Below are positions 3,481 through 30,206 of a stretch of DNA of 32,000 nucleotides, piece after piece. Source of the stretch: Haloferax volcanii DS2 (GTDB lineage: Archaea; Halobacteriota; Halobacteria; Halobacteriales; Haloferacaceae); the NCBI RefSeq assembly GCF_000025685.1, contig NC_013967.1:1950001-1982000 (forward strand), written 5' to 3'. Within the stretch, counting starts at the first letter, position 1; every line of letters starts with the position of its first letter. The notes beneath the pieces were generated by a model. It ran no database searches. It was not told the DNA's origin and worked only from the letters and a program-made list of their open reading frames with translations. The position numbers and the translations under genes are program-made.

Positions 3481-3551
3481 CACATATGTGGTGAAGATAC
3501 TGACCGACCGGCCTGCCTCACGGTGAGTCGTTCGCGGCGGACGCCCTCCGC

Positions 3552-4165: not shown

Positions 4166-4167
4166 AT

Positions 4168-5493
4168 TCAGGTCGACCTGACGCGGTGAGTCGCGACGCT
4201 GTCGAGGGCGGTTTCGAGGCATTCGAGTGCGAGGTCGAGTTCGCGGTCGGTCACGTCGAGCGGCGGCAGGAGGCGAAGCGACCGCTTACCGCAGCCGAGC
4301 GTGAGAAGCCCCTCGGACAGCGCGGCCTCGAGGACCTCGTCGCGACGGTCCTTGGTATCGAATTCGACGGCAGTCATCAGCCCGAGGCCACGCACGTCAG
4401 TGAGACAGGGGGTCCGCTCGGCGAGCCGAGAGAGGTCCGAGCGGAACCGCGTGCCCTTTTCGGTCGCGTTCGCCATGAGGTCCTGTTCCTGAATGACGTC
4501 GAGCGTCAGCGTGCCCTGAATCGACGCGAGGATGTCGCCCGCACCCCACGTCGATGACAGTCGCGCTTCGGTGTCGGGGAACAGCGCTTCGTTCGCCACC
4601 GTCGCGCCGACCCGAAGCGCCTTCGCGCTGGTGATGACATCCGGTTCGAGGTCGTAGTGGTCCGAGGCCCACAGTTCGCCGGTCCGACCCACGCCGGACT
4701 GAATCTCGTCGGCGATGACGGGGATGTCGTGTTCGTCGCAGATGGCCTGTACCTCGCGCATGAACGCCTCGCTCGGGACGTGGTAGCCGCCTTCGCCCTG
4801 AACGGGTTCGAGGATGAGGAACGCCACTTGGTCGGCGGGGAGGTGACCGTGGGTATCGTCGAGTTTGTCGCGCAGCGTTTCGAGGCCCGCCATCGAGTAC
4901 GGCACGTCGTGGATGCCGCTCACTTCGGGGAACTTGCGGCGGTGGACGGACTTCGAGCGGTTGAGCGAGAGCGCGCCGAGAGTGCGGCCGTGGAACGCCC
5001 CGTCGAAGGTGATGCCGTACTTCGGGGTCTCGCAGGCGTCGTAACAGATTTTGATGGCGTTTTCGACCGCTTCGGCCCCGGAGTTCGACAGGAACACCGT
5101 GTCGAGGCCGTAGTGGTCGGTGAGGTCGGTCAGGCGGTCCATGAGGTGGGCCGGCCCGGGCAGCGACGCCGTCTCGGGCGACCCGCCGGTGCTCACGTAG
5201 AAGTCCTGACCCGCGATTTTCATCGGGTCGACGAGGTCGAGGTCGTCGAGGCGGGACCGCAGTTCGGGGTTGTTGTAGCCGAGCGGCGCGGCCGCGACGT
5301 GGCTCGTGAAGTCCAGCAACACGTTGCCGTCGGGGTCGGTACAGAACGGCCCGACGGCGTCTTTGGTGATATCCCACACGAACTCGTAGACGTACGTGCT
5401 CGTCGCGGCGGTCGACTGGTGATACTCGACCCACTCTGAGGCCTTCGGTCCCGGGAGCGACGTGACGGTCGGCTCGACTGAGTCTCGATCCAT
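4168..5493 (-). CDS. class-III (omega-) pyridoxal-phosphate aminotransferase (GabT / lysine-6-aminotransferase-like)
   Basis: 441-aa ORF with a fold-type-I class-III pattern: LDFTSHVAAAPLGYNNPEL, FLSNSGAEAVENAIK, ILEPVQGEGG, ADEIQSGVGRTG, and Lys context DVITSAKAL. The N-terminal region looks more like lysine-epsilon aminotransferase than canonical GabT. Confidence 0.88.
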   Translation of the reverse strand: MDRDSVEPTVTSLPGPKASEWVEYHQSTAATSTYVYEFVWDITKDAVGPFCTDPDGNVLLDFTSHVAAAPLGYNNPELRSRLDDLDLVDPMKIAGQDFYVSTGGSPETASLPGPAHLMDRLTDLTDHYGLDTVFLSNSGAEAVENAIKICYDACETPKYGITFDGAFHGRTLGALSLNRSKSVHRRKFPEVSGIHDVPYSMAGLETLRDKLDDTHGHLPADQVAFLILEPVQGEGGYHVPSEAFMREVQAICDEHDIPVIADEIQSGVGRTGELWASDHYDLEPDVITSAKALRVGATVANEALFPDTEARLSSTWGAGDILASIQGTLTLDVIQEQDLMANATEKGTRFRSDLSRLAERTPCLTDVRGLGLMTAVEFDTKDRRDEVLEAALSEGLLTLGCGKRSLRLLPPLDVTDRELDLALECLETALDSVATHRVRST

Positions 5494-14253: not shown

Positions 14254-14787
14254 TCGTCGCGCCGATCGCTGGCGAATCCGTCGTGACGCGCGACGCCCTC
14301 GTCGGCGACGGCGCTCGTCTCTCGGTCGCGACGCGTGCCGTGACTCCCCCGGTTCGACGCCAGAAACACCAATATAGAATATATATCAGAAATATATAGT
14401 AGGCAGAGGCATTGGTATGATAGTATATCCTCGAAAACACCGATATCAGCGTTTGAAACTGGCAGGAAGCTCAGATAACATCACCGGACGTCAAATCGCG
14501 AGTCTCCGACTATCTGAAATCTGAATCGCCGTCTGATACCATTTACAGTGCGACTATCCGGAATACCCTTCGAACTCTCGAACTATCCACTAAATCATAG
14601 GATATCTGAATGATACCAGAAATCATCATATTTCTGTCTTAGAACCGGTAGGGGAATCGCGACCGATTCCGCGAGGCCGCTCCCCTCCACGGTCGAAGCA
14701 CCGACGCGGTTGCAGGCGGCTTTGTAGTCACTCGTCTCGCCCACTACGTCGTCGGGCGTCGAATCGGCCACGAGTCCGAGCGGTCGT

Positions 14788-15069
14788 CTACGTATCGAGG
14801 TCGAAGTCGTTCCGGACGAGTTCGACGAGTCGCTCGACGGCCTGTTCGCCGTCGTTACCGTCGGCGGTGATGACGATTTCCTCGTCCGGGCCGACACCGA
14901 GCGAGAGAACGGCGATACTGCTTTTGGCGTCTACCTCCGTCTCCCCGCCGGCTTTCCGCACGGAGATGTCCGTCTCGAACTTCGACGCCGTCTGGACGAA
15001 CATCGACGCGGGACGCGCGTGGAGACCAGTCTCGTGCTCTACGACTACTGTCGCTGATTTCGCTGCCAT
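14788..15069 (-). CDS. ptsH: PTS phosphocarrier protein HPr
   Basis: MAAKSATVVVEHETGLHARPAS carries the active-site His context. A conserved Ser region (DAKSSIAVLSLGV) is present. The alternative start at 15081 adds MPAR. Confidence 0.9.
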   Translation of the reverse strand: MAAKSATVVVEHETGLHARPASMFVQTASKFETDISVRKAGGETEVDAKSSIAVLSLGVGPDEEIVITADGNDGEQAVERLVELVRNDFDLDT

Positions 15070-15301
15070 CCGTGCGGGCATTTCCCACGCCGGTACTAAG
15101 GCTTTTCCGCTAGGCGAGCGCCTTTGCCGGCGGACGCGGACTCGACGCCGGCGCTCGCCGAGGCGGCTCTCAGCGCCGAGACCCGCGAGGACGTGCGAGC
15201 GCTCGTCGACTGAGAACTGGAGGAGAGTGGAATGGAGTGAAGTGGAGTACTGGTCGCTCGCTCGTCGTGAAGCACCACTCCGCGGCGTCGTCTTCTCCCT
15301 T

Positions 15302-15763
15302 TCAGCCGTCGAAATCGACGCAGCGCTCGACGACGAGGTCGAGCAGGCCGTCGGCGTCGCGGCGCTTCGTCAGTTCGGCGAACTCCTCGGCCTGGAAGAG
15401 TTTCGCGAGGTTCGAGAGGAACGACGAGTACCCGTCGGTGTCTGTCACGAGGAGTAACACGACGACTTCGGCGTCGACGCGCTCGTCGGGGTTGTCCATG
15501 CTCCGGAACGCTATCGACTCGCCCGCGGGCGGCAGTCCGAGGAGCACGGCCTGTTCTGTGACGTGGTCGGGGTCGGCGTGGGGGATGGCGATACCGAACC
15601 CCATCGTCGGGATGTCGAGTCCCGTCGGGTAATCGGCTTCGCGTGCCAGAAGGGCGTCCGCGTAGCTCTTGTCGGCCCAGCCTTGGTCGTAGGCGTACGC
15701 GCCGAGTTCCGTGAGGACCGCTTCGTCCGTCTCGCCAGTCAGTTCGAGGCTTTCGGTTTGCAT
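15302..15763 (-). CDS. PTS EIIA component (PTS_EIIA_2, fructose/mannitol/galactitol type)
   Basis: Starts MQTESLELTG. The phospho-His context is GFGIAIPHADPDHV. It is 153 aa, and the track ORF's 136-aa basic N-terminal extension is discarded. Confidence 0.9.
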   Translation of the reverse strand: MQTESLELTGETDEAVLTELGAYAYDQGWADKSYADALLAREADYPTGLDIPTMGFGIAIPHADPDHVTEQAVLLGLPPAGESIAFRSMDNPDERVDAEVVVLLLVTDTDGYSSFLSNLAKLFQAEEFAELTKRRDADGLLDLVVERCVDFDG

Positions 15764-15821
15764 CGATGAGTCGTACGCGGGTCTCCGAGAAAAGTGTTGG
15801 TACCGGTTCGCCGGCGATGCC

Positions 15822-15854
15822 GCAAAACGCGGCGACTCGTCGCGGTCGAGTCGC
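15822..15854 (-). terminator. GC-rich hairpin followed by a short T-run between EIIC and EIIA (attenuator/terminator-like)
   Basis: GCGACTCG (15832-15839) and CGAGTCGC (15847-15854) form an 8-bp stem with a 7-nt loop. On the minus strand the stem is followed within a few nt by TTTT (complement of aaaa at 15824-15827). Confidence 0.3.
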
Positions 15855-15878
15855 GGACACCGACGGGTAACTGCGCGG

Positions 15879-17402
15879 TCAGTCGTCGGAGCGACCCTCT
15901 GCGCCCGAGGCGTCGACGGTCGAGCCGAGTTTGTTGGGCAGGAGGCCGCCGCCTTTGCCGGTGTGACGACGTTCGACGGTCTCCCGCGCTTTCTCTTCGG
16001 ACGCGCCGGCGACCATGTACATCCGCTGGGGCCACATCCGAAGCGCGACCCAGATGCCGAGGACGACGACGAGTCCGACCGCGAGGGCGACCGGTGCCGG
16101 GATGAGGGCCAGAATGCCCGTCGCGGGCGACCCCGCGTCAGCGACGGGCGACGTGATGAGCCCGCGACCACCGAGGTCGAAGCCCGCGCTCCCAGCCGCC
16201 TGCGTCAGGAGCGGAGCCACCGCGGAGGAGATGTAGTGCAGCGGAACCAGCAGGATGGTGCCCGTGACGACCATCTTCACGATGTTGCCGTTCATGATAG
16301 GGACCATCAGCGCGAAGAAGAACGGGAACGTCGCCAGGTCGATTCCCCACAGCACGTCGTTGCCGGGGAGGATAATCGACATCACGATGGCGATGGGGAC
16401 GATGAGCAGGCTGGACGCGATGACCGACTCGTGGCCGATGAGGATGGCCGAGTCGAGGCCGATCGCCATGTCGCGGTCTTCGAACCGCGAGGTCATGTAG
16501 TTCCGAATCGACTCCGAAAGCGGCGTCAGCCCCTCCATGAGGATGCCGACCATCATCGGGAGGATGTGCATCACCGCGGCGAACGAGATGCCGGCGGTGA
16601 GGATGGCGTACCAGCTCTCGGCGACGAAGAGCGCGTTACTGTAGGCGGCGATACCGATGACGAGCCCGATGGCGAGGCCGACGAAGATTGGTTCGCCGAG
16701 GATGCCGAACCGGTCTTGAATCGCGTCGGGGTCGGCTTCGATGTTCCCGAGCGGCGTCTTATCCACCGCCCAGTGAATCGGAATCGCGGCGACGGCGTAG
16801 GGTGCCGAGGTCCCGTGCGGAATGGAGATTCCGGGCGTGTCGAACGTCTCCTCGACGGCCGGTTGCGTCCAGTCCGCGGCCACGAGGACGAACAGCCCCA
16901 GCGTCAGCCCGACCGCCACCGAGTACAGCCAGTTGTTCGTGCTCATGTAGACCAGTCCGCCGATGAAGGCGAAGTGCCAGTAGTTCCAGATGTCCACGTT
17001 GAGCGTGTACGTGAAGCCGATAGCGAAGAGGACGAGGTTCATCACCACGAACAGCGGAATCATCCAGACGCCGAGTTCCGCGATACCGAAGGCGATGGCG
17101 GCGGCGGCGGGCCAGCCGACGTCGACCGCTGGAAGCGTGACACCGGTCACCTCGACCATCTGTTGGGCCAGCGGGCTGATGTTCTCGCTGAACAGCCCGA
17201 TGACGAGATTGATGCCGATGAACCCGATACCGATGAGGATGGACGAGCGCGCCGCCTTCAACACGTCCACCCGGAACGCGAGCGCGATGAGGAAGATGAT
17301 TATCGGCAGGAGGACGCTCACGCCCAACGATTGGATTACGCTGTTGATAGAATTCAACAGGGAACTCACACCACTCTGTAAGAATACGTCTGGTACTACC
17401 AT
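15879..17402 (-). CDS. PTS EIIC permease, galactitol family (GatC-like)
   Basis: 507-aa polytopic protein. Blocks match my recollection of GatC: IGIGFIGINLVIGL, AVDVGWP, LNVDIWNYWH, GISIPHGTSA, FGILGEPIFVGL, MEGLTPLS. It has a C-terminal soluble extension of about 50 aa. Confidence 0.92.
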   Translation of the reverse strand: MVVPDVFLQSGVSSLLNSINSVIQSLGVSVLLPIIIFLIALAFRVDVLKAARSSILIGIGFIGINLVIGLFSENISPLAQQMVEVTGVTLPAVDVGWPAAAAIAFGIAELGVWMIPLFVVMNLVLFAIGFTYTLNVDIWNYWHFAFIGGLVYMSTNNWLYSVAVGLTLGLFVLVAADWTQPAVEETFDTPGISIPHGTSAPYAVAAIPIHWAVDKTPLGNIEADPDAIQDRFGILGEPIFVGLAIGLVIGIAAYSNALFVAESWYAILTAGISFAAVMHILPMMVGILMEGLTPLSESIRNYMTSRFEDRDMAIGLDSAILIGHESVIASSLLIVPIAIVMSIILPGNDVLWGIDLATFPFFFALMVPIMNGNIVKMVVTGTILLVPLHYISSAVAPLLTQAAGSAGFDLGGRGLITSPVADAGSPATGILALIPAPVALAVGLVVVLGIWVALRMWPQRMYMVAGASEEKARETVERRHTGKGGGLLPNKLGSTVDASGAEGRSDD

Positions 17403-17492
17403 GTTATTAACTCACAACCCTGTCTCAGAATGAGAGTGTCTCTACATAAATGTTGCTGTCATTCGTGAAGATTCGTGTCGGCGACGTATCGG

Positions 17493-17789
17493 TCAGCCTT
17501 CGAGCGCCGCGGCGATGTCGTCGAGGACCTCGTCTTGGCCGATACCGGTCATGAACGCCGTCGTGTGGATGACCGGGACGTCGAACTTGTCTTCGTTGAG
17601 TTGCGTCGTGGTGACGATGAGGTCGAAGTTCCCCGACGAGACCTTGCCGGGGGCTTCCGTCGCCTTCGCCTTGGCGATGGTCCCGATGTCGAGGCCGCGC
17701 TCCGGGAGCTTCTCTTTCAGCGCTTCCTTGACGACCGTCGACGTCGCAACCGATGTGCCACACACTACGAGGATGTTTTTCGCTGTCAT
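17493..17789 (-). CDS. PTS EIIB component (GatB-like)
   Basis: MTAKNILVVCGTSVATSTVVKEALKE carries the phospho-Cys context seen in GatB-type EIIB proteins. It is 98 aa, and the track ORF's N-terminal extension is discarded. Confidence 0.9.
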   Translation of the reverse strand: MTAKNILVVCGTSVATSTVVKEALKEKLPERGLDIGTIAKAKATEAPGKVSSGNFDLIVTTTQLNEDKFDVPVIHTTAFMTGIGQDEVLDDIAAALEG

Positions 17790-17895
17790 TGTCGTGTATT
17801 GCACATCATCGATGACCACTAAAAAGATTGCGCCGGTCCGACGCGCCGCAGTCCCGAGTGGAGCGAGACGGGACGGTCTGCCGTCGGCGGCCGTC

Positions 17896-18573
17896 TCAGG
17901 GGAAACTCGTGGCGATGTCGCGGAGGAGCGGCTCCGGCTCCGACGCGAGCGACACGGCCGACGCGGCACCGGTCGCGTGACCTCCCTGTTCGAAGGCGAG
18001 GCGGACGTCTTCGGCGGTCGAGATGCCGCCGCCGACGAGGACGCGAGTGCGCGGATTCTCCCTCTCGACCATCGACATGAAGTCGCGAACGCGGTCGGGG
18101 TGCGTCTGCGTAATCGCGCGGTCCGACGAGATGTCCTCGGGCATCTCGTATATCATCGAGTCGGGGTCGAACTCCGCGACCGCGCGACCCATCTCGATGC
18201 TGTCGACGCAGACGACCGAGTCGAGGTCCAGGTCGCGACAGCGCTCGGTTTTCCACACGAGGTCGGACAGCGTGTCGCGGTTCTCCGCGTGGTTGATGAC
18301 GACGCCGTCGGCCCCCGCGTCTGCGACGGTCTCCGGGAGGATTTTCCCCATCCCGCGACCGGGCTCGACGGCGTCCATCGCGGGCGCGGTGACGGCGAGG
18401 TCGGTGTGTTCGGTTATCAGCCGGATGTCCGGCAGTTGCGGCGTCAACACGAAGCGCGCGTCGGTCTCCGCCTCTATCGTTTCGAGCAGCCGCGCGAACG
18501 CGAGCGCGTCCTCGCCGCTCGTGTCCGGATACACCTTGAAGTTGACCTGAAAGTGGGGGTACGGAAGGTTCAT
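17896..18573 (-). CDS. tpiA: archaeal-type triosephosphate isomerase paralogue (TIM-like isomerase, divergent lid loop)
   Basis: 225 aa with QVNFKVY (Asn/Lys), VINHAENR (His), IYEMPE (Glu) and VLVGGGIS blocks, as in short archaeal TIMs. The loop-6 IGTG sequence is replaced by ISSD. Confidence 0.8.
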   Translation of the reverse strand: MNLPYPHFQVNFKVYPDTSGEDALAFARLLETIEAETDARFVLTPQLPDIRLITEHTDLAVTAPAMDAVEPGRGMGKILPETVADAGADGVVINHAENRDTLSDLVWKTERCRDLDLDSVVCVDSIEMGRAVAEFDPDSMIYEMPEDISSDRAITQTHPDRVRDFMSMVERENPRTRVLVGGGISTAEDVRLAFEQGGHATGAASAVSLASEPEPLLRDIATSFP

Positions 18574-18601
18574 CAGTGGGTCCGGGGATTACCTCGGGGA
18601 G

Positions 18602-19378
18602 TCATAATAGCGTCTCCGCCTCCTCGATAGTCGCGCCCTCGTGGACGATGGCCGAGAGCGCGTCGATGATGGCCGCGGGGTCGTCCCGCTGCCAGACGTT
18701 CCGGCCGAACATCACGCCCTGCGAACCGGCCTCGACGGCACCGTGGACCATCTCCAGTACCTCTCGGTCCGTCTCGACGGTGGGGCCGCCGGCGATGTAC
18801 GTCGGCACCGGCGCGTTGTGCACGATGCGCTCGAAGCCCGTGGGCGGGTACGGCGTCTTCAGGATGTCCGCGCCGAGTTCGAAGCCGAGGCGGTTGGCGT
18901 TGACGAGGTAGTCGGTGTCGAACTCGTCGTCAGCGCGCTGGCCCCAGAGTGTGGGCTCGACGATGAGCGGAATCCCCGCGTCGTCGCAGTCCTCGGCCGC
19001 GGCCGCGACGAACTCGGCGTTCTCCTTCAGCACGTCGGGACTCTCCCGCCCGAAGACGAGCGCGACTTTCGCGGCGTCGGCCACCTCGGCGCAGTCCTCG
19101 ACGCTGAACACCTGAGAGTGGATTTCGGCGTTCTCGACGTCGCCCGGCATCGTTGAGTCGTACAGGAGGTCGAGCGTGCCGATGGTGTGGACGTCGGCGG
19201 CGTCGATTCGGTCCTCGAAGCGCTTCAGAAACGGCACGCTCGCCAGGATACCGTCGGGGCCGGCGTCCAACACCGTGTCGAGGAGCGCCGCGGGGTCCTC
19301 GAACCCCTCAAGCGAACCCCAATGGAGGCCGTGGTCGATGGCGACAGTCACCGATCGTCCGAGTCGTTGGTCCGTCAT
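18602..19378 (-). CDS. class-I aldolase of the DhnA / archaeal class-IA (DeoC/LacD superfamily) type
   Basis: Starts MTDQRLGRSVTVAIDHG. The Schiff-base Lys context is GADILKTPYPP. The ATG at 19378 follows the yjbQ-like stop (19381-19383) by 2 nt. The track ORF's 144-aa extension is discarded. Confidence 0.85.
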   Translation of the reverse strand: MTDQRLGRSVTVAIDHGLHWGSLEGFEDPAALLDTVLDAGPDGILASVPFLKRFEDRIDAADVHTIGTLDLLYDSTMPGDVENAEIHSQVFSVEDCAEVADAAKVALVFGRESPDVLKENAEFVAAAAEDCDDAGIPLIVEPTLWGQRADDEFDTDYLVNANRLGFELGADILKTPYPPTGFERIVHNAPVPTYIAGGPTVETDREVLEMVHGAVEAGSQGVMFGRNVWQRDDPAAIIDALSAIVHEGATIEEAETLL

Positions 19379-19380
19379 GG

Positions 19381-19806
19381 TTATCGTAGAATCGTCGTGG
19401 TAATCGTTCGCTCGCGCGGGCCGCACAGTTCGAAGAACATGACCTCTTCCCAGGTCCCGAGGTCGAGCTCCCCGTCGCGGAGGACGAGAAGGACCGGTCG
19501 CTTGATCATCGCGGAGATGAGGTGCGCGTGGGCGTTCGGCTGCTCGCCCGCGGTGATGTGGTCGAGGTCGTGGTAGTAGCCGTCGTCCGGGGGGGCTATC
19601 TGCTTGAACTTGTCTATCATGTCGTCGAGGAGCTTCTCTTCGTACTCGTTGGTCGAGAGCGCCGCAGACGTGTGGGGCGTCGACACGTACACGAGTCCAT
19701 CGGTCACGCCGAGGTCCTCGATGGTCGCTTCCACCTCGGGAGTGACGCTCAGAATCTCGAACCTGCTGTGGCTCTCGATGGAGAAGCTCTCTGTCTGTAT
19801 CTCCAT
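19381..19806 (-). CDS. YjbQ/UPF0047-family protein
   Basis: 141 aa with family blocks LVYVSTPHTSAALSTNE and DLDHITAGEQPNAHAHLISAM. Confidence 0.9.
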   Translation of the reverse strand: MEIQTESFSIESHSRFEILSVTPEVEATIEDLGVTDGLVYVSTPHTSAALSTNEYEEKLLDDMIDKFKQIAPPDDGYYHDLDHITAGEQPNAHAHLISAMIKRPVLLVLRDGELDLGTWEEVMFFELCGPRERTITTTILR

Positions 19807-19828
19807 ACACCGTAGCTCAGGGAGTGAG

Positions 19829-19840
19829 CGTAAATAGTTT
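19829..19840 (-). promoter_or_regulatory. BRE/TATA-like box of the yjbQ-aldolase-PTS unit (AAACTATTTACG on the minus strand)
   Basis: cgtaaatagttt at 19829-19840 is the exact reverse complement of 19985-19996. It lies 23-34 nt upstream of the ATG at 19806. Confidence 0.6.
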
Positions 19841-19950
19841 TTGCCGACAATCTCCCGAACGCCGCACAGCGACCGTTAGGCGGCAGATATCTTGGGCTCT
19901 CCCTTCTACAACCACCGTTCGGACGGTGTCGGTGGTTCGCTCCACTGTCT

Positions 19951-19980
19951 CACCGAGTCGAACAGTTGTTCTGCTCGGTG
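19951..19980. promoter_or_regulatory. 30-bp near-palindrome CACCGAGtcGAACAgtTGTTCtgCTCGGTG (candidate IclR operator)
   Basis: 12 of 15 positions pair when the sequence is folded on itself. It lies 5 nt upstream of the IclR-2 TATA-like box. Further CACCG/CGGTG copies occur at 19911-19936. Confidence 0.5.
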
Positions 19981-19984
19981 GAAC

Positions 19985-19996
19985 AAACTATTTACG
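19985..19996 (+). promoter_or_regulatory. BRE/TATA-like box of IclR-2 (AAACTATTTACG)
   Basis: It lies 22-33 nt upstream of the ATG at 20018 and is the mirror image of 19829-19840. Confidence 0.6.
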
Positions 19997-20017
19997 TTGC
20001 CTCGACGACACGCAGTT

Positions 20018-20779
20018 ATGACAGAAAACGCGCCCAACCGGATCGAAACGAGTCGGAAGACGATTCGGGTGCTCGACGCGCTTCGAGAACACGGGTCGAG
20101 CAGTGTGACGTTCCTCGCGCGGGAACTCGGGATGAACAAGAGCACGGTTCACAACCACCTCAGCACGCTCGAAGCCGAGAAGTTCGTCGTCCGCGACGGG
20201 ACCGATTACGAACTGAGTCTCCGCCTGCTCGGGTTCGGGGGATACGTACAGCACCGCCACCCGCTGTATCAGGTGGCGAAGCGGGAGGTCCACCGGTTGG
20301 CGTCCCAGACTGGTGAGCTCGCGAACCTGATGGTCGAGGAGTACGGACAGGGCGTCTATCTCGCCTCCGAACAGGGTGAGCGGGCGGTCGATTTAGACAT
20401 CTACCCCGGCCTCAGACGGCCGCTCCACGCCATCGGTCTCGGAAAGGCGATACTGGCGCACCTCCCGTCCGAGCGCGTCGACGAAATCATCGAGGAACAC
20501 GGCCTTCCCGCGGAGACCGACCAGACGATTACCGACAGAGCGGAACTCGACGCACAGTTGGCGACGGTCCGTGACCGGGGCTATGCCGTGGACAACGAGG
20601 AACTCATCAGAGGGCTCCGATGCGTTGGCGCACCCATCATCGCGAAAGACGGGACCGTCTTGGGTGCAATCAGCGTCTCGCAACCCGTCAGCCGCATGAA
20701 TAACGAGCGGTTCACCGACGAGGTTCCCGACATCGTCCAGAGCGCCGCCAACGTCATCGAACTCCACACGAATCACTAA
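20018..20779 (+). CDS. IclR-family transcriptional regulator (copy 2), divergent from the PTS unit
   Basis: Starts MTENAPNRIETSRKTIRVLDAL. wHTH is NKSTVHNHLSTLEAEKFV. Effector-domain blocks are RGYAVDNEE, GLRCVGAPI and GAISVSQPVSR. Confidence 0.9.
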   Translation: MTENAPNRIETSRKTIRVLDALREHGSSSVTFLARELGMNKSTVHNHLSTLEAEKFVVRDGTDYELSLRLLGFGGYVQHRHPLYQVAKREVHRLASQTGELANLMVEEYGQGVYLASEQGERAVDLDIYPGLRRPLHAIGLGKAILAHLPSERVDEIIEEHGLPAETDQTITDRAELDAQLATVRDRGYAVDNEELIRGLRCVGAPIIAKDGTVLGAISVSQPVSRMNNERFTDEVPDIVQSAANVIELHTNH

Positions 20780-23007: not shown

Positions 23008-23307
23008 TGTCCGTTTCGACTGCCTTTATTCGTAATCGTGGCATTATAACGGGAAAGGCAAGCGAACTATCCACTCGCTCGCGACGCAGGAGACCGTTTG
23101 GAAAGAGGTTCCTCGTGAGCGTTTACGACACACCGCTTACCCCCGGGATGGAGACAATGAGCACTATCCGAAACGGTGCTGATGAAACGGCCAACGACCC
23201 GATACAGAGACGCTTTCTTGACCAGGCCTCGCTTCTGCAATAGTGACCGTTCCGAATCGTGTCCTGAACCCAAATATTTAATCAGGTTGGAAATGGTGTG
23301 TTATCGT

Positions 23308-24072
23308 ATGGCAACCAACAAACCACGAACGCTGGAGGCGGTTGAACGGTCTCTCGAACTCATCGAGGCACTGGTCGAGGAGGACTCGCTAGGGGTGACG
23401 GAACTCTCGGAGCGAACTGGACTTCCAACGAGCACCGTCTACGTGCACCTGCAGACGCTTCGGGAGAACGACTACGTCGTCAAGGAAGGGAGCAAGTACC
23501 GACTCTCGCTTCAGTTCCTCCACTACGGGGGCAAGATTCGAGAACGGCTTCCGGTCTACCGACATGGACGGAAGGTCGTCCACGACCTGGCCAAAGAGAC
23601 TGGCGAACTGGTCAATCTCGCGATTGAGGAGAACGGCCGCGGTGTCGTGATATTCATGGCACGCGGCGACAACGCTGCTGTCGACCTCGCACCCGTTGGG
23701 AAGCACTCGTACCTCCATCGACCGGCTTTCGGGCGGGCCATCCTCTCGTGTTTCTCCGACGAGGAGGTGAACGATATCGTCGACAAATGGGGGCTTCGAG
23801 CGGTCACCGAAAACACCATCCATACGCGTGAGGCGCTCTTCGAGGAACTCGAAGCGACCCGAGAGCGCGGGTACGCGATCGAGCGAGACGAAGGAGACGT
23901 CGGAATCAGCTGTGTCGGCGCGCCGATTCAGGACATCGAAGGAAACCCCGTTGGCGCGATCAGCGTGACCGTCCCCTCGAACAAACTTCGGGACGACCGC
24001 GTCGAAGAAGAACTCTCACACAAGATCCTCAATGGAACCAACATCATCGAACTCAAGATAGAACACGCATAA
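23308..24072 (+). CDS. IclR-family transcriptional regulator (copy 3)
   Basis: Starts MATNKPRTLEAVERSLELIEAL. wHTH is TSTVYVHLQTLRENDYV. Effector-domain blocks are RGYAIERDE, GISCVGAPI and GAISVTVPSNK. A TATA-like aaatattta lies at 23272-23280, and a TGGAAAT half site (23288-23294) sits between it and the ATG. Confidence 0.9.
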   Translation: MATNKPRTLEAVERSLELIEALVEEDSLGVTELSERTGLPTSTVYVHLQTLRENDYVVKEGSKYRLSLQFLHYGGKIRERLPVYRHGRKVVHDLAKETGELVNLAIEENGRGVVIFMARGDNAAVDLAPVGKHSYLHRPAFGRAILSCFSDEEVNDIVDKWGLRAVTENTIHTREALFEELEATRERGYAIERDEGDVGISCVGAPIQDIEGNPVGAISVTVPSNKLRDDRVEEELSHKILNGTNIIELKIEHA

Positions 24073-24085
24073 CCGACGAGACACT

Positions 24086-24106
24086 ATTTCCACGCTGGTT
24101 GGAAAT
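24086..24106. promoter_or_regulatory. ATTTCCA-N7-TGGAAAT inverted repeat (site C) in the convergent gap between IclR-3 and the pdxA-like gene
   Basis: The arms are perfect 7-bp reverse complements, 24086-24092 and 24100-24106. The repeat starts 14 nt after the IclR-3 stop. Confidence 0.45.
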
Positions 24107-24141
24107 GCCGCCGAGTCCACCTGACGGGTTCTATGTACCTG

Positions 24142-25149
24142 TCACGCTCGCTCGATGGCGACGCGAGCGGCGGTTCGAATCGCGTCGACCATACTGGACT
24201 CGGAGGCGATTCCCTGTCCCGCAATATCGAACGCCGTCCCGTGGTCAACACTCGTTCTGATGATCGGCAGTCCGACCGTCATGTTGACGCCGCTGACCGT
24301 GTCGGTGCTGTCGAAGCCGAGCATCTTGATCGGGATATGTCCCTGGTCGTGGTACATCGAGACGACGCAGTCGTACGCGCCAGCGGCTGCCTTGACGTAG
24401 ACGGTGTCCGGCGGAATGGGCCCTTCGGCGTCGATACCAGCCTCACGGGCCTGTTCGACGGCCGGTTCGATGGCGTCGTCGTCTTCCGTCCCGAGAAGTC
24501 CCCCCTCGCCGGCGTGAGGATTCAAGCCAGCGACGGCGATCGTCGGGTCGTCGATTCCCAGGTCGTGTAACCCCTGATTAGTGACAGTGATGGTGTCGAG
24601 GACGTTCTCGGTTGTCACGAGGTCGCACGCCTCGCGAAGCGGGACGTGTGTGCTCACGTGCGTGACGCGAAGCCCCCCCTCGATAAGCATCATGGAATAG
24701 TTATCTGTCTCGGTGTACGCCGCGAGCATCCCGGTGTGGCCCGCGAATTCGCTTCCCGCCTGGGCTGTCGCTTGCTTGTGAATCGGGGCCGTCGCGATGG
24801 CGTCGATGTCGCCTACGATGGCGAGTTCGATCGCGCGTTCGATGTACTCAAGCGAGGCGCGGCCGTACGCCTCGTCGATTTCGCCGTAGGTCAGCGACGC
24901 GACGTTGTCGAGGTCGAGTACGAACAGCGTCGATGGGTCGGATCGAACGTCTGCGACGGACTCGACCGCTTCGACCGACAGGTCGCTATCACACTGGTCG
25001 ACTGCGTGCCGAATCACGTCCGCGTCGCCGATGACCACGAGGCTTGCGTCCTCGGTCACCTCGGGTGCTGCTTCGACGATTATTTCGCTTCCGATGCCAC
25101 CGGGGTCACCCATCGTCACGCCGACGAGAGGTCGCTTTACTGCTGTCAT
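24142..25149 (-). CDS. pdxA: PdxA-family NAD-dependent 4-phospho-hydroxyacid dehydrogenase (decarboxylating; PdxA2-like)
   Basis: Motifs VGVTMGDPGGIGSEI, GLNPHAGEGG, MYHDQGHIPIK and RTSVDHGTAFDIAG. The preferred start MTAVKRPL at 25149 overlaps the upstream stop as TGATG (25147-25151). Confidence 0.9.
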   Translation of the reverse strand: MTAVKRPLVGVTMGDPGGIGSEIIVEAAPEVTEDASLVVIGDADVIRHAVDQCDSDLSVEAVESVADVRSDPSTLFVLDLDNVASLTYGEIDEAYGRASLEYIERAIELAIVGDIDAIATAPIHKQATAQAGSEFAGHTGMLAAYTETDNYSMMLIEGGLRVTHVSTHVPLREACDLVTTENVLDTITVTNQGLHDLGIDDPTIAVAGLNPHAGEGGLLGTEDDDAIEPAVEQAREAGIDAEGPIPPDTVYVKAAAGAYDCVVSMYHDQGHIPIKMLGFDSTDTVSGVNMTVGLPIIRTSVDHGTAFDIAGQGIASESSMVDAIRTAARVAIERA

Positions 25150-26387
25150 CACGGCGTACCGATGAAGTCGAGGCAATTAACTATTGTCGTCGGGTCACCG
25201 AACGACCCCGCCTTGGTCACGAGGAGGGTCTCGTCGGCCGCTCCACCGCGAATTCGGGTGAGTGGAATGCCGTCGTCGAGTTCGATTCCCGTCAGTTCGA
25301 GTGACTCCGCGTCGAGTTCGTCGAGTACCGCGATGGTCGTCGAGCCACCAGTCGTGAACAGACCGGCCAACGGCCGTGTCTCGTGGACTCCGCGGACGGT
25401 CGCACGCAACGTCGTCGCGATTCGATCTTTGACGGCGTGCTCGTCGAGTCCGAGCGCGTCCGCGTTCCGGGTCACTTCGTCGACGGCGCGAGAAGACGGA
25501 GCCGACGTGACGATGGCGAATCCGTGAGCGCGCTGCGCGGCGAGAACCGGGCCGACAGCTTCGGACGCCGCTTCCGTTGGACGCTCGAGCATCGTCTCGG
25601 GGTCCAGCGCAACGATCGCTTGGTCCGGAACCCGCGCGAGTTGCCCGAACGAAGTCTCGCTGACGCTCCCGACCACGCCGAGGACCGATTGGCCCCCACT
25701 TACTGCGGTCGAACGCGACAACGCCCCCGCGAGTCCGCCACTCCCCGCATAGGCGACGGTGGCTGTGAGTCGGCTGGCGGCGTCGGCAAGCGACCGAAGG
25801 TGGGTGTGAGTTGTGGCGTCGGCGACGACGACTACCGGCCCGTCGCGGTTGCGGTCTATCTCGGCGAGTTTCGACCGGACGTGTCCTGTACCCTTGGTTA
25901 CGACGTCCAGCGGGAGTGTTTCGACGGGATACGCGAGCGATGAGAGCAGCTCGACCACCGACGACGTTGCAGGCAGGTTCTCTGAGTCGGTAAGCGTCTC
26001 GACCACGGGGTCACCGTCGACCAACTGGACGCCGTCTTCGGTCGTCCGCCCGTTACTGGGAAACGCCGGTGCAAGCAACAGGATGTCGGGCGTCGCGGCG
26101 TCGAGCACCGCCGCCAGTTCGTCGGTGACGTTCCCGCGGAGCGTGGAGTCGAGCTTGTTGTACAGAAGCGTGGTGTCGTGTTGTGACACGGCGGCGCGAA
26201 CCGTTTCGTACGCCGCTGCCGGTGGTGCTTCCCGTGTCTCCGTATCGACGACGAGGACGTCGCAGCTCGTCGGTGCGCTTGGGTCGAACACCACGTTCGT
26301 CCGATACCCACGGCTGGCGAACTGGCTCCCGGTGTCGTTCGCTCCGGTGATATCGTCTGCAATAACAACTGCGTTCAACTCGGTCAT
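25149..26387 (-). CDS. four-carbon acid-sugar kinase family protein (DUF1537; OtnK/DtnK/DenK-like)
   Basis: 412 aa. The N-terminal signature is AVVIADDITGANDTGSQF, followed by a C-terminal nucleotide-binding half. The gene is translationally coupled to the pdxA-like gene. Confidence 0.9.
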   Translation of the reverse strand: MTELNAVVIADDITGANDTGSQFASRGYRTNVVFDPSAPTSCDVLVVDTETREAPPAAAYETVRAAVSQHDTTLLYNKLDSTLRGNVTDELAAVLDAATPDILLLAPAFPSNGRTTEDGVQLVDGDPVVETLTDSENLPATSSVVELLSSLAYPVETLPLDVVTKGTGHVRSKLAEIDRNRDGPVVVVADATTHTHLRSLADAASRLTATVAYAGSGGLAGALSRSTAVSGGQSVLGVVGSVSETSFGQLARVPDQAIVALDPETMLERPTEAASEAVGPVLAAQRAHGFAIVTSAPSSRAVDEVTRNADALGLDEHAVKDRIATTLRATVRGVHETRPLAGLFTTGGSTTIAVLDELDAESLELTGIELDDGIPLTRIRGGAADETLLVTKAGSFGDPTTIVNCLDFIGTP

Positions 26388-26441
26388 ACCGTCTGAGTCT
26401 TGGTTGCCAGCCTATGAATGTTCGGCCGTGCCATGATAAAT

Positions 26442-26483
26442 GTCAACAAGGATTAGAAATGTATTTACATTACAGTCAAGAAG
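26442..26483 (+). promoter_or_regulatory. TATA-overlapping palindrome AATGTAttTACATT flanked by direct repeats GTCAAcAAG / GTCAAgAAG
   Basis: The palindrome is at 26458-26471, about 22-35 nt upstream of the ATG at 26493. The direct repeats are at 26442-26450 and 26475-26483, with starts 33 nt apart. Confidence 0.45.
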
Positions 26484-26492
26484 CGTAATTCC

Positions 26493-27920
26493 ATGGCATC
26501 GAACGAATGCCGAGACAGTGATAGGACCGCTACGAGACGCCGAACCGTCCTCAAGGCCGTGGGGGGCTCAGCAGTCGCAGGGCTTGCAGGCTGCGTTGGC
26601 GGTGGTGGGGGAGACGGCTCGGGCTCAGGCTCGGGTTCGGGATCCGGCGACGGAACCACCACGGGGACCGTGAACGAAAACGGCTGGCCTGACTACAGCG
26701 GGCGCGAGATGCGCGTTGTCACCGACGAGTGTTCGGACGTGTTCAAGCGCGTCTGGGAAGACGCGTTCGCCGAGTTCGAAAACAAGACGGGCGCGTCCGT
26801 CACCCTCGAATGCGGCGCAGAGGGACAGAGCATTCAAGAGCGTATCATTCAGCTCATTCAGTCCGGCAACCCGCCGGAGCTGTTCCCGACATCGGTGACG
26901 CAATCGACGCAACTCCAGAACCAAGGGACGCTCGCTCCGATGACCGACTTAGTCGAGACGGTCACGGACCGATTAGGCATGCCCCACGAGCGGTCGTTCC
27001 TCGAACGCGACGGCGAACACTACACGATTCCCTTCTTCGCGATTCCGTACCTGCAGTGGTACCGAGAGGACATCGCCGAGTCGAAACCAGACTCCTGGGA
27101 GAACATGGTTGGCTGGATGGAGGAAGCCAGTGGTTCGGACGAGGTGACCGACGCGACGCTGCTTCCGTGGTCGACGCACTACTGTAGCGAACTCGTCGCT
27201 CAGTGTTTCCTCCGAAGTAACGGTGCGAACATGGCGACTCGAAACGATGACGGTGAGGTTGTGGTCTCGATCGACCAGGGAGAGAACCGCGAGCGCTGGA
27301 TCGAAATGCTCGAATTCCGCAAGCAACTCCAGCCCTACACCGGCCCCGGTTCGGACATCGGCTGTGAAGAGCGGATCAACGCACTTCATACTGAGTCGTC
27401 GGCGCATACGACGTACGGTGGTGCGCGGCCGAAGATTCAGTCCATCGAACGCGAGCGTGACTTCCACGAGCATATTCGCGCCGCTCCGATCCCGGGGCCA
27501 GACGGACCGGGGAAGTTCTTCGGCGTCATCAAGTCCATCTGCTCGTTCCAGGGGTCGAACACGGACATGGCCAAGACGTTCCTCGATCAGTTCATCTTCC
27601 AGCCGGAGTACTACGAGCGCTACATCAACATTCAGAACGCGCCGCTGTACCCGAAACAGAAAGAGGAGATCGACATGCGCGAGAAGCTTCCGGACTCCTA
27701 CACCGACGCGGATATCGAGGCGTGGAAGTCGGTGACCGACGCGATTCCACCGGCACACGAGACGAGTCCGCCGAACCCGTACGTCGATTCCATCTTCACG
27801 ACTCGGCCGGGCTCGACTGCCATCTCACTCGTGATCAGCGAGGACATGGACCCGGGCAAGGCAGTCGACCAAGTCGCAGCGAAGGCTCGCGAGTCGCTGA
27901 ACCAGGCGAAGGGGCCATGA
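26493..27920 (+). CDS. ABC transporter extracellular solute-binding lipoprotein (family 1, carbohydrate type)
   Basis: Tat motif TRRRTVLK, lipobox LAGC and a G/S/T linker. It is a 475-aa SBP_bac_1-like body and is followed in the same direction by two carbohydrate-type permease genes. Confidence 0.88.
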   Translation: MASNECRDSDRTATRRRTVLKAVGGSAVAGLAGCVGGGGGDGSGSGSGSGSGDGTTTGTVNENGWPDYSGREMRVVTDECSDVFKRVWEDAFAEFENKTGASVTLECGAEGQSIQERIIQLIQSGNPPELFPTSVTQSTQLQNQGTLAPMTDLVETVTDRLGMPHERSFLERDGEHYTIPFFAIPYLQWYREDIAESKPDSWENMVGWMEEASGSDEVTDATLLPWSTHYCSELVAQCFLRSNGANMATRNDDGEVVVSIDQGENRERWIEMLEFRKQLQPYTGPGSDIGCEERINALHTESSAHTTYGGARPKIQSIERERDFHEHIRAAPIPGPDGPGKFFGVIKSICSFQGSNTDMAKTFLDQFIFQPEYYERYINIQNAPLYPKQKEEIDMREKLPDSYTDADIEAWKSVTDAIPPAHETSPPNPYVDSIFTTRPGSTAISLVISEDMDPGKAVDQVAAKARESLNQAKGP

Positions 27921-28053
27921 GAATACATGCGTAGACACATCGGCCACAGGCACGCTCACCTCGCCCTGTCGAGGAACCCGTAACCAGACCAGCAGACCAC
28001 CTCCAAGTACACTCGAATCCACACATCGACTCACATACGACCTCAACAAACAG

Positions 28054-28989
28054 ATGAAACACGAACTACACGGCGTAAATCCACCGCTTATCACCCCGCT
28101 CGACGCCGACGGTCAGTTGGACGAAGACGCGTTCAGAGATGAGATTCGCTACCATCTCGATGCTGGCGTCTCAGGCGTCGTCGTCGGCGGAAGCACCGGC
28201 GAAGGGATGCGAATGACCGACGACCAACTCAAGCAACTCTACGACGTCGCGGTCGACGAAGTGGACGGCGACGTTCCCGTGGTCGCGGGAGTCATCGCAC
28301 GACAGACGCGCGAGGCCACCGTAAAAGCGGAACTGGCTCGTGACGCGGGTGCGGACTTCATCATGGCGATGCCACCGACGGGGTACGTCGGCTCGCACAT
28401 GGCCGACAACGACTCGATCCGCGACTACTACCGCGCAATTGCGGATGTTTCCGAGTTACCAATCGTCATCTACGACGTCATGTCGTTGCTCGACCTCGAC
28501 GCGGAACTCGTCGGTGACCTCGTCCGGGACATCCCGGAAGTCGTCGGCATCAAAGTCAGCAGCACGCTCGGCAATCTGACGCACTATCTCCGAGCCATCG
28601 GCGATGACGGCTTCGTGCTTGGCGGGATGAGCATCGGCCAGTTCCCAACGTACACATTGGGTGTCAACGGCGGAATCGTGGGTATCAGTAGTGTCTGTCC
28701 ACGCATCTCCGTCCAAATCTGGGAAGCCACACAACGTGGCGATTACGACCGTGCCCGAGACCTTCATTTCGCGCTTGTCCCGCTCATCCGCGCCGCGATG
28801 GAGAACTACGAATCGAACTTCCCCGCTGGCGAGAAAACGGCGATCGACGTGCTCGGACGCGATGCGGGCTGTCTCTTCCATCCCTTCGACGGAGTCGAAG
28901 ACGGTGACGAGAAGCGCGCGGCCATTGAGGACGCAGTCTCACAGATGCACGACCGAGGAACGAGAGAAATCGTCCACGCCGACGATTAG
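28054..28989 (+). CDS. DapA/DHDPS-family class-I (pyruvate-dependent) aldolase or dehydratase
   Basis: Motifs LITPLDADGQLD, VVVGGSTGEG, PIVIYDV, and the Schiff-base Lys context VVGIKVSS. Confidence 0.9.
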   Translation: MKHELHGVNPPLITPLDADGQLDEDAFRDEIRYHLDAGVSGVVVGGSTGEGMRMTDDQLKQLYDVAVDEVDGDVPVVAGVIARQTREATVKAELARDAGADFIMAMPPTGYVGSHMADNDSIRDYYRAIADVSELPIVIYDVMSLLDLDAELVGDLVRDIPEVVGIKVSSTLGNLTHYLRAIGDDGFVLGGMSIGQFPTYTLGVNGGIVGISSVCPRISVQIWEATQRGDYDRARDLHFALVPLIRAAMENYESNFPAGEKTAIDVLGRDAGCLFHPFDGVEDGDEKRAAIEDAVSQMHDRGTREIVHADD

Positions 28990-29249
28990 GACGGAGAAGC
29001 TGGCCAGCACCGACCGGTCTGTCCGTCAGACCTCGAAACAGCCTGCCAATCGGATGGACTCTTCCAGCCACCCGTCCGCTCTTTTCGATAGCCGCCCCCC
29101 TTGAGACGAACGCGCCGACAATCATCGAGCGGACACTCGTCGTCGCTGGCGTCGGTTCTGCCGTGGGAGTTCCAGTTCTCGAGTCCCGCTCGCAGCACGA
29201 CCGCAAAAACAGATCTCGGCTCGGTTCGATTCGCGCCGAGCGTTCGAGG

Positions 29250-30047: not shown

Positions 30048-30206
30048 GATCGTCAGTACGTTCTCGGGTGATCCTATAATAATCTATGGGGGGACGCGAG
30101 AAGACAGTGGATCGGGTGACTGGAGTCTTCGTTCGTCTCTCGAACAGCTGTGACTGTACTGATGGGAAGGTTTTTACCGTTGGTTCATGAAGAATTGGCA
30201 CGTTCC

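Follow-up and report, generated by a model that had tools for sequence, protein, structure and literature searches.

Which sugar enters metabolism through the galactitol (Gat)-family phosphotransferase system (PTS) of Haloferax volcanii, and by what chemistry is it broken down? The question is raised by a 32-kb stretch of the H. volcanii DS2 genome (the window, to which all coordinates and HVO_ genes refer unless another locus is named). Here, seven co-oriented genes on the minus strand encode, in order, a YjbQ/UPF0047 protein, a DhnA-type class I aldolase, a protein resembling triose-phosphate isomerase (TIM), and the PTS components EIIB, EIIC, EIIA and HPr. A preliminary description presented the cluster as a candidate uncharacterised pathway. 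HVO_2101-2106 already figures among the three PTS operons predicted in the 2010 H. volcanii genome paper, and this numbering agrees with the gene order in the window, so that HPr would be 2101, IIA 2102, IIC 2103, IIB 2104, the TIM-like protein 2105, the aldolase 2106 and YjbQ 2107. A 2024 study named HVO_2105-06 triose-phosphate isomerase and fructose-1,6-bisphosphate (FBP) aldolase. A literature search for functional studies of HVO_2101-2106 found none, the matches being only the genome paper and the 2024 transcriptome mention.

The reading that we prefer, with a probability of roughly 45%, is a catabolic operon for a keto-sugar or keto-acid-sugar, in which the PTS would make a ketose-1-phosphate-type ester and the aldolase would cleave it to dihydroxyacetone phosphate (DHAP) and an aldehyde. 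From gene content, conservation, module swaps and active-site patterns we infer the individual chemical steps and the substrate. HPr, EIIA, EIIB and EIIC would import the substrate, with Enzyme I (EI) supplied from elsewhere in the genome, and would phosphorylate the primary hydroxyl beside the carbonyl, giving what is in effect a substituted DHAP. The aldolase would form a Schiff base at the carbonyl and cut the C3-C4 bond, releasing DHAP and a non-phosphorylated aldehyde. The TIM-like enzyme would convert DHAP to glyceraldehyde-3-phosphate (GAP) or, less probably, shift the carbonyl of the sugar phosphate ahead of cleavage. YjbQ would serve the sugar-specific part of the route, with either the ketose phosphate or the aldehyde co-product as its substrate. 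An IclR-family protein would regulate the operon, and an FGGY-family kinase would phosphorylate the released three-carbon fragment or offer an alternative entry for free sugar. The best-fitting substrates would be a 6-deoxy-2-ketohexose (of the L-rhamnulose/L-fuculose type, giving lactaldehyde), another 2-ketose, or a C4 compound.

Conservation of the cluster and exchange of its entry step

Reading of the open reading frames (ORFs), together with Pfam and NCBIfam profile scans of their translations, places all seven genes where the preliminary description had put them and in the families that it had proposed, with an IclR gene divergent from them (Table 1). Its 2-nt spacing also stands, the YjbQ stop codon occupying 19383-19381 and the aldolase ATG lying at 19378. 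The phospho-relay residues that it described as intact are indeed so: the HPr His lies in ETGLHARP, the EIIA His in GIAIPHAD and the EIIB Cys in ILVVCGTS, and the domains are matched end to end.

To follow conservation, 80 genomic loci with an EIIC gene were searched by tblastn and with profiles, further loci being fetched with the TIM-like and aldolase proteins. The order YjbQ-aldolase-TIM-IIB-IIC recurs in Haloferax, Halobellus and two Halobacteriales metagenome-assembled genomes at 60-85% protein identity, far beyond chance, and the YjbQ-aldolase-TIM trio is conserved across several haloarchaeal genera. The seven genes stand bare among unrelated neighbours in Halobellus marinus.

The EIIC belongs to the EIIC-GAT fold family (PF03611, 262.8 bits against a cut-off of 24.2) and is 99% identical to a Haloferax "galactitol permease IIC", and galactitol models are the best NCBIfam matches for EIIA, EIIB and EIIC. 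At the level of the specific GatA, GatB and GatC models, however, all three fall short, with 49 bits against 139 for IIA, 45.6 against 95 for IIB and 353 against 542 for IIC (TIGR00827). The E. coli galactitol system (GatABC, GatD, GatY/GatZ and tagatose-6-phosphate kinase) thus shares the EIIA, EIIB and EIIC families with the window but not its scores or its enzymes, the window having a class I DhnA aldolase with TIM-like and YjbQ proteins instead. The absence of galactitol-route enzymes from the window had been noted before and holds for the large ORFs scanned there (a set without 31177-31902), among which there was no gatD-type, pfkB-type, class II aldolase, GatY/GatZ or tagatose-6-phosphate kinase gene. 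The Pfam-annotated orthologous clusters likewise contain no homologue of gatD, pfkB, gatYZ or tagatose-6-phosphate kinase. Constant company of gatD or pfkB in such clusters had been proposed as the mark of a conventional galactitol/tagatose route, which is therefore unsupported. The H. volcanii fructose PTS operon (Pickl et al. 2012) makes fructose-1-phosphate, which passes through 1-phosphofructokinase to a class II FBP aldolase. That system resembles the window in being a bacterial-type, phosphoenolpyruvate-dependent PTS of the same organism group whose product is phosphorylated at the ketose C1. It differs in its Fru-family EIIC, in the PfkB kinase that makes the bisphosphate, and in its class II aldolase, whereas in the window there is a class I variant with TIM-like and YjbQ proteins and no PfkB gene was found.

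Evidence on the chemistry comes from the way in which the entry enzymes are exchanged between loci (numbered L001 onward). The PTS type occurs with IclR and FGGY kinase genes (L085), and also as an EI-TIM-IIB-IIC arrangement (L089, L093). In other loci (L092, L094, L096, L098, L104), YjbQ-aldolase-TIM is followed by a kinase resembling FucK/RhaB, one or more short-chain dehydrogenases/reductases (SDRs) and a CUT1 ABC transporter. Among solved structures this kinase comes nearest to two enzymes that make ketose 1-phosphates, the L-fuculose kinase 4C23 (205 bits) and the L-rhamnulose kinase 2CGJ (195 bits), and the surrounding FAA-hydrolase, enolase-superfamily and VOC genes are reminiscent of 6-deoxyhexose catabolism. 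A Natrarchaeobius locus combines a RhaB-like kinase, YjbQ, VOC, TIM-like, aldo-keto reductase, aldolase and aldehyde dehydrogenase genes with an orthologue of the FGGY kinase and an IclR gene. Elsewhere, the aldolase and TIM-like genes come after the gene for an OiaK-like kinase, which scores 497 bits to 3-oxo-isoapionate kinase; apiosidase and GH28 genes are nearby and YjbQ is lacking. Two further arrangements are an aldolase with Dak1 (DhaK) and a third FGGY group but no TIM, where Dak1 adjoins the aldolase in Halohasta and Halapricum, and a Halorhabdus TIM-like gene with an aldo-keto reductase by transketolase/transaldolase genes. The latter is seen in Halorhabdus tiamatea (L086, 9001-10595) and in L095 and L097, where the lid-variant TIM-like protein occurs without aldolase or YjbQ and its neighbours are transaldolase, split transketolase, RpiA and Rpe. 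Genes for handling aldehydes recur near the module, including aldehyde dehydrogenase and aldo-keto reductase (L087), glyoxalase/VOC (L087, L092, L098, L104) and an iron-dependent alcohol dehydrogenase of the FucO family (L011).

All variants share an activating step that puts phosphate beside a carbonyl, whether by PTS, ketose 1-kinase or OiaK-like kinase. Release of DHAP and a variable fragment is the simplest model. The replacement of the PTS by a FucK/RhaB-like kinase in sister clusters, together with an aldolase active site in which the Schiff-base Lys and one phosphate site are retained and Tyr-Pro-Arg is missing (see below), supports cleavage of a ketose-1-phosphate. This part of the pathway proposed in the preliminary description, a ketose-1-phosphate cleaved to DHAP and an aldehyde, is thereby strengthened. 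Its other part, that no second kinase step is needed, is unsafe, since an FGGY kinase and an IclR gene adjoin the cluster here and in two other lineages. That reading had overlooked the FGGY kinase, which lies just beyond IclR and travels with the cluster in other genera. Its orthologues, at 58-64% identity, adjoin IclR and the module in L085 and L087, and the kinase aligns over its full length but weakly to XylB (84 bits); it probably belongs to the regulon.

A parallel in logic to the preferred pathway is provided by the L-rhamnose and L-fucose pathways (RhaB-RhaD, FucK-FucA), in which a ketose becomes a ketose-1-phosphate and then DHAP and an aldehyde with no second kinase. The likeness extends to the FucK/RhaB-like kinase that replaces the PTS in sister clusters and to lactaldehyde-type downstream enzymes that recur nearby. 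The aldolases of those pathways are metal-dependent class II enzymes of the adducin type, whereas the window has the Schiff-base DhnA type, PTS entry, no RhaA/FucI and the additional TIM-like and YjbQ proteins.

A second parallel is the oxidative D-apiose pathway, in which ApnO-OiaK is followed by a RuBisCO-like decarboxylase (Carter et al. 2018). Contigs of Halosimplex and of a Halopelagius-like kind have a gene of the aldolase subfamily and a TIM-like gene after that for the OiaK-like kinase, close to apiosidase/GH28 genes. These contigs contain no RuBisCO-like protein, whose place the class I aldolase would take, and they represent a variant without PTS or YjbQ and with a different TIM-like subgroup. 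In Halosimplex aquaticum (L100, 5517-10491) and L101, a metallo-beta-lactamase-fold protein, the OiaK-like kinase, a PGDH_C dehydrogenase, the aldolase and the TIM-like protein are encoded together. These loci may encode a haloarchaeal route for D-apiose/apionate; a class I aldolase would there do the work that falls to the RuBisCO-like enzyme in bacteria.

Active sites of the aldolase and the TIM-like protein, and the role of YjbQ

The closest match to the aldolase in the PDB is MJ0400 (107 bits). The DHG motif, the Schiff-base Lys in LK(T/S)PY, and GGP and GRN of the P1 phosphate site are retained, with GADILKTPY, IAGGPT and FGRNVWQ aligning to MJ0400 and to the Thermoproteus tenax FBP aldolase. 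The Tyr-Pro-Arg motif is not: MMYPRG of MJ0400 and ESFPRG of the T. tenax chain 1W8S give way in the window protein to EPTLWG, a sequence invariant in 25 of the 25 aligned orthologues. In the T. tenax enzyme, we take Tyr146 to be the proton shuttle and Arg148 the ligand of the second phosphate. The aldolase also scores below every equivalog cut-off, with 97.6 bits against 430 for the archaeal FBP aldolase model (Fbpase1_Arch), 142.6 against 299 for ADH_synth and 113 against 297 for LsrF. Given EPTLWG in place of Tyr-Pro-Arg and these scores, the protein is no standard FBP aldolase or ADH synthase; judging by its aligned residues, it probably binds a monophosphate. The subfamily gave 174 matches in 5.8 billion proteins, and among the 120 matches listed all those with a named source are haloarchaeal. 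The aldolase gene nearly always has the TIM-like gene adjacent to it, and the two overlap by 4 nt in L101 and L104, as would fit a hand-over of DHAP.

The TIM-like protein belongs to the PRK04302 subfamily (253.5 bits against a cut-off of 132) but falls short of the TIM equivalog TIGR00419 (98 bits against 130.6). It is 36% identical to the Pyrococcus woesei TIM 1HG3 and keeps the catalytic residues K13, H95 and E143 (in NFK, NHAE and YEMPE, aligned with K14, H96 and E144 of 1HG3). The lid that grips the phosphate does not match the canonical EPPELIGTG, reading EMPEDISSDRAIT (E-M-P-E-D-I-S-S-D), and GRGMG stands where GSHTG is canonical. All haloarchaeal members of the subfamily have DI(S/A)(S/T)(D/S/E) in the lid. 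The comparison set of about 120 representatives of canonical archaeal-type TIM has LIG(T/G/S)x there and shows neither the lid change nor GRGMG.

These features bear on the view that TIM and aldolase are ordinary glycolytic or gluconeogenic paralogues serving a hexitol or hexose PTS, with the missing steps encoded elsewhere or carried out by the FGGY kinase and with YjbQ a bystander. MJ0400, the closest solved aldolase, cleaves FBP; the TIM-like protein exceeds the PRK04302 cut-off with its catalytic triad kept; and the FGGY kinase is adjacent. Public annotation of the pair as triose-phosphate isomerase and class I FBP aldolase agrees with this view, as does the 2024 study, in which expression of HVO_2105-06 is altered in gluconeogenesis-regulator mutants. 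We nevertheless regard it as unlikely: the aldolase lies under all equivalog cut-offs and lacks Tyr-Pro-Arg, the TIM lid is non-canonical, gatD and pfkB were found in no Pfam-annotated orthologous cluster, the linkage of YjbQ is kept in two domains of life, which speaks against a bystander, and the swap of the PTS for a FucK/RhaB-like kinase points to a monophosphate ketose. The automatic labels "triose-phosphate isomerase" and "class I FBP aldolase" are probably misleading for these subfamilies.

The same residues count against a C3 route, in which the Gat-type permease would take up dihydroxyacetone (or glyceraldehyde) to give DHAP directly, and TIM and aldolase would lead on to GAP and FBP. 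Such a route has its attractions. Metabolism of DHAP would call for just such a pair, a TIM and an FBP-type aldolase; minimal clusters hold no further enzyme, Dak1 adjoins the aldolase in Halohasta and Halapricum, and hypersaline habitats offer dihydroxyacetone and glycerol as major sources of carbon. We consider it decidedly unlikely, given an aldolase without FBP-aldolase residues and an altered haloarchaeal TIM lid; it would also leave the aldehyde-handling genes, the FucK/RhaB-like kinases and YjbQ unexplained, and H. volcanii already has a DhaKLM system (2010 genome paper).

A serious rival, if on balance an improbable one, is a C4 route. The PTS or kinase would then make a tetrulose 1-phosphate or an oxo-tetronate or oxo-isoapionate 4-phosphate; the TIM-like protein would be an isomerase of the LerI/EryH type (R-CHOH-CO-CH2OP to R-CO-CHOH-CH2OP); the aldolase would be an erythrulose-1-phosphate formaldehyde-lyase, a Schiff-base decarboxylase, or an enzyme condensing erythrose-4-phosphate (E4P) with DHAP; and YjbQ would be a second isomerase. 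The tetritol pathways (Brucella EryA-EryI; Mycobacterium smegmatis EltD-LerK-LerI-DerI) also have a TIM homologue inside a sugar-phosphate catabolic cluster, LerI and EryH being TIM homologues that act on erythrulose-1-phosphate. DHAP aldolases make or cleave this compound, and Brucella uses Fba as an E4P bypass downstream of erythritol. The haloarchaeal ABC-transporter variants, with SDR dehydrogenase, ketose 1-kinase and TIM-like protein, have the same combination as EltD-LerK-LerI. The route is further favoured by the Halosimplex aldolase-TIM pair beside the OiaK-like kinase and apiosidase, by genes for a D-threonate-type PdxA and a DtnK-like DUF1537 kinase that lie 4 kb off in the window and recur near the module, and by the Halorhabdus TIM-like gene beside transketolase and transaldolase. 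The variant TIM lid would suit a non-triose substrate.

Other points speak against the C4 route. Most haloarchaea are not known to have transketolase or transaldolase, the pentose-phosphate enzymes that take E4P, or to use E4P, which would make E4P a dead end; release of formaldehyde would be unattractive catabolically. No RpiB-type DerI/EryI homologue was seen in the scanned window ORFs or annotated clusters, nor were EryB/EryC homologues seen there, and the aldolase and YjbQ are obligatory partners here, unlike in the tetritol pathways. The OiaK-linked TIM-like proteins form a different subgroup with a different lid, and the kinases that replace the PTS, with their neighbours, resemble 6-deoxyhexose rather than tetritol genes.

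YjbQ itself is a clear member of its family (PF01894, 105 bits against a cut-off of 27; TIGR00149, 95.8 against 67.75), and its PDB relatives (2P6H, 1VE0) are all labelled "hypothetical", without assigned function. In E. coli, overproduction of YjbQ creates a route to 2-oxo-3-hydroxy-4-phosphobutanoate, a C4 keto-phospho-acid, which agrees with the C4 route. The suggestion that YjbQ is integral to the unit is borne out by contiguous YjbQ-aldolase-TIM genes in about 20 haloarchaeal loci and by TIM-like, YjbQ and aldolase genes beside Gat PTS genes in Firmicutes and Coriobacteriia. It is absent where the entry enzyme is the OiaK-like kinase. The co-product there would be CO2 rather than an aldehyde, so that YjbQ would occur only where the fragment is an aldehyde or sugar moiety.

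Loss of Enzyme I, the promoter region and neighbouring genes

EI is absent from the window, as the preliminary description had stated, and the cause is a lineage-specific deletion rather than design. Haloferax massiliensis, Haloferax sp. Q22, H. prahovense, H. gibbonsii and H. denitrificans carry a 1.86-kb segment between EIIA and HPr. In H. massiliensis (L001) this segment contains an intact EI gene that runs on the opposite strand; EI was recognized by Pfam in L001 and by tblastn. The window aligns with L001 up to 12239 and picks up again at 13891, so that about 1.65 kb with ptsI has been deleted, and the remnant left in the window corresponds to the last ~26 residues of EI. At the junction, ~16 nt align to both flanks, which suggests microhomology. 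The same deletion is found in a 474-kb metagenome contig (L088) that is 98-99% identical to the window.

The loss of ptsI might mean that the cluster is a decaying remnant with a PTS that no longer works. This is very improbable. All nine genes are intact, with dN/dS of 0.04-0.5, indicating purifying selection, and this holds also in comparison with L088, which has the same deletion. The Halobellus and L085 clusters are likewise without an EI gene in cis, and a complete EI/HPr PTS is reported elsewhere in the H. volcanii genome (2010 genome paper). Maintenance of the operon without a cis ptsI suggests that EI comes from elsewhere in the genome. Taken with the rivals discussed above, the galactitol/tagatose, dihydroxyacetone PTS and decay readings are each less likely than the preferred operon for a keto-sugar or keto-acid-sugar.

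Two further observations concern PTS loci in other genomes. Between HPr and a major facilitator superfamily gene, L001 has ~1.9 kb of long overlapping ORFs (14706-16662) that are absent from the window; one ORF has a weak match to an integrase core (rve_3), and the segment may be a mobile-element insertion. In L084 (6738-12857), an aldehyde dehydrogenase gene lies between two EIIC genes of the Gat family. A DUF1537 acid-sugar kinase gene comes next and EI, HPr, IIB and IIA are nearby, linking haloarchaeal Gat-type permeases with acid-sugar kinases.

The region between YjbQ and IclR contains an inverted repeat. Its two arms, 19822-19845 and 19980-20003, both carry AAACTATTTACG and lie ~21-37 nt upstream of the start codons of YjbQ and IclR, respectively. 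The promoter is probably divergent and symmetric, with these elements as its two TATA boxes and with transcripts that are nearly leaderless. Orthologues of IclR, at 47-60% identity, are neighbours of the module in L085, L087, L090, L092 and L093. A 10-nt motif, TCTCCCGAAC, common to the YjbQ-IclR and IclR-FGGY intergenic regions, was considered as an IclR operator and dropped; neither the corresponding regions of even close Haloferax species nor any of the other clusters have it, and it is therefore taken as chance. A scan for sigma-70 promoters and intrinsic terminators was set aside as not meaningful for an archaeon.

Table 1. Features of the H. volcanii cluster, of the neighbouring island and of the bacterial clusters (positions in the window unless a locus is given).
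Feature	Position	Strand	Evidence or remark
HPr phosphocarrier	14788..15081 (possible true start 15069)	-	PF00381, E 3e-28; TIGR01003, 90.5 bits, above cut-off; GLHARP His motif
ptsI (Enzyme I) 3' remnant, 81 nt	15133..15213	+	Translation ends ...ALAEAALSAETREDVRALVD and stop, in agreement with the EI C-terminus
PTS EIIA (EIIA-2 type)	15302..15763	-	PF00359, E 5e-18; AIPHAD His motif
PTS EIIC permease, galactitol (Gat) family	15879..17402	-	PF03611, E 7e-78
PTS EIIB (Gat/Lac type)	17493..17789	-	PF02302, E 9e-13; VVCGTS Cys motif
TIM-like isomerase, archaeal-type TIM family with variant lid loop	17896..18573	-	PF00121, E 3e-19; PRK04302, 253 bits
DhnA/DeoC-type class I (Schiff-base) aldolase, haloarchaeal subfamily	18602..19378	-	PF01791, E 1e-31
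YjbQ/UPF0047 protein	19381..19806	-	PF01894, E 3e-30; TIGR00149, 95.8 bits, above cut-off
Divergent promoter region, symmetric AAACTATTTACG element on each side	19822..20003	.	Inverted repeat with 24-nt arms
IclR-family regulator, divergent from the operon	20018..20779	+	PF01614, E 1e-38, and PF09339
FGGY-family carbohydrate kinase, 486 aa	21127..22587	+	FGGY_N, E 3e-9
PdxA-family dehydrogenase, D-threonate-4-phosphate dehydrogenase-like	24142-25176	-	Second sugar-acid island
DUF1537 kinase closest to D-threonate kinase	25149-26387	-	Second sugar-acid island
Small two-helix protein of bacterial clusters	L069 11335-11754; L039 11352-11858; L077 11359-11832; L050 11363-11845		

Beyond the FGGY kinase, 23176-31902 forms a second sugar-acid island with its own IclR gene (23176-24072), an ABC solute-binding protein and permeases, a DHDPS-family lyase, an aldo-keto reductase, and the PdxA and DUF1537 genes of Table 1. 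The island probably encodes a route for C4 acid sugars, again with DHAP as the end point. It adjoins the PTS cluster in some Haloferax but not in H. prahovense or H. gibbonsii, and in L092 the module likewise has a PdxA gene at its side. Membership of the PdxA and DUF1537 genes in the PTS operon was rejected in view of their own IclR, their absence beside the cluster in those two species and the D-threonate-route appearance; the island is treated as separate, though possibly related in function. At the other end of the window, 2458-4557 is lower in G+C (0.53 at 3001-4000 against ~0.65 elsewhere). Its ORFs at 2458-3018 (-) and 3766-4557 (+) have no Pfam match, and it is flanked by genes for a GH3 glycosidase (195-2456, -) and a class III aminotransferase (4168-5493, -).

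Parallel clusters in bacteria and a possible catabolic cassette

The arrangement had been described as archaeal, but it is not specific to archaea. Six loci from Firmicutes and Coriobacteriia combine a Gat PTS with a class II aldolase (PF01116), a TIM-like protein of archaeal length and a 172-aa YjbQ, together with a PRD/Mga-type regulator and a small two-helix membrane protein. The clusters of Anaerococcus octavius (L069), Anaerostipes (L039) and Holdemania (L077) resemble the window in that Gat PTS, DHAP-type aldolase, TIM-like and UPF0047 genes are contiguous. They differ in the class of the aldolase, in an insertion of ~30 aa in YjbQ, in the canonical LIGTG lid of the TIM-like protein, and in the regulator. 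The minimal bacterial cluster, L069, has neither kinase nor dehydrogenase. The small protein (~140-170 aa, two N-terminal membrane helices) is encoded directly after the Gat EIIC in every bacterial cluster, and Pfam and NCBIfam scans gave no match for it. Our literature search found no functional study of the bacterial Gat-PTS/TIM-like/YjbQ clusters.

A single clade of haloarchaeal and Firmicute TIM-like proteins was considered and rejected. In a neighbour-joining tree of 149 archaeal-type TIM representatives, the two fall in separate clades whose common ancestor is the root of the tree, so that a shared subfamily cannot be claimed, and the GRGMG that they have in common may be convergent. The PTS-aldolase-TIM-YjbQ association may thus have arisen twice, which would make the functional link, if anything, stronger.

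Several points weigh against a PTS-made ketose-1-phosphate cleaved to DHAP and an aldehyde. Gat-family PTSs classically take polyols, not ketoses, and we know of no free 6-deoxy-ketoses as environmental substrates. The bacterial aldolase falls in a "ketose-bisphosphate aldolase" family that usually needs a second phosphate, and the FGGY kinase could make a bisphosphate. With the cis EI gene deleted, activity hangs on a ptsI outside the window. The lid loop of the TIM-like protein is unlike that of every canonical TIM, and to judge from it the protein may not be a plain TIM. Finally, because the TIM homologues LerI and EryH isomerise erythrulose-1-phosphate, a C4 route would fit the same genes.

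A bolder reading, possible but doubtful, is that YjbQ, the EPTLWG-type aldolase and the lid-variant TIM form an unrecognised catabolic cassette that different organisms join to different means of entry (Gat PTS, FucK/RhaB-like kinase, OiaK-like kinase). YjbQ would have its true physiological role here, and the TIM-like protein would be no TIM but a carbonyl-shift isomerase resembling LerI/EryH. If this is true, YjbQ might, for example, isomerise or epimerise the ketose 1-phosphate, or else process the aldehyde co-product. The module swaps show putative DHAP-releasing cassettes recombined with uptake and activation systems, PTS alternating with kinase and ABC transporter, and class I with class II aldolase.

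YjbQ/UPF0047 proteins occur in all domains of life and have nine solved structures without an established physiological role, for which the cluster linkage provides an experimental entry point. With a conserved cluster in the tractable model archaeon H. volcanii, UPF0047 function becomes directly testable. The fructose route is the only archaeal PTS sugar route to have been worked out, and H. volcanii's second PTS, though annotated in 2010, has since been left without an explanation. If the cassette reading holds, this PTS would feed a new pathway for a keto-sugar not yet known as a haloarchaeal substrate.

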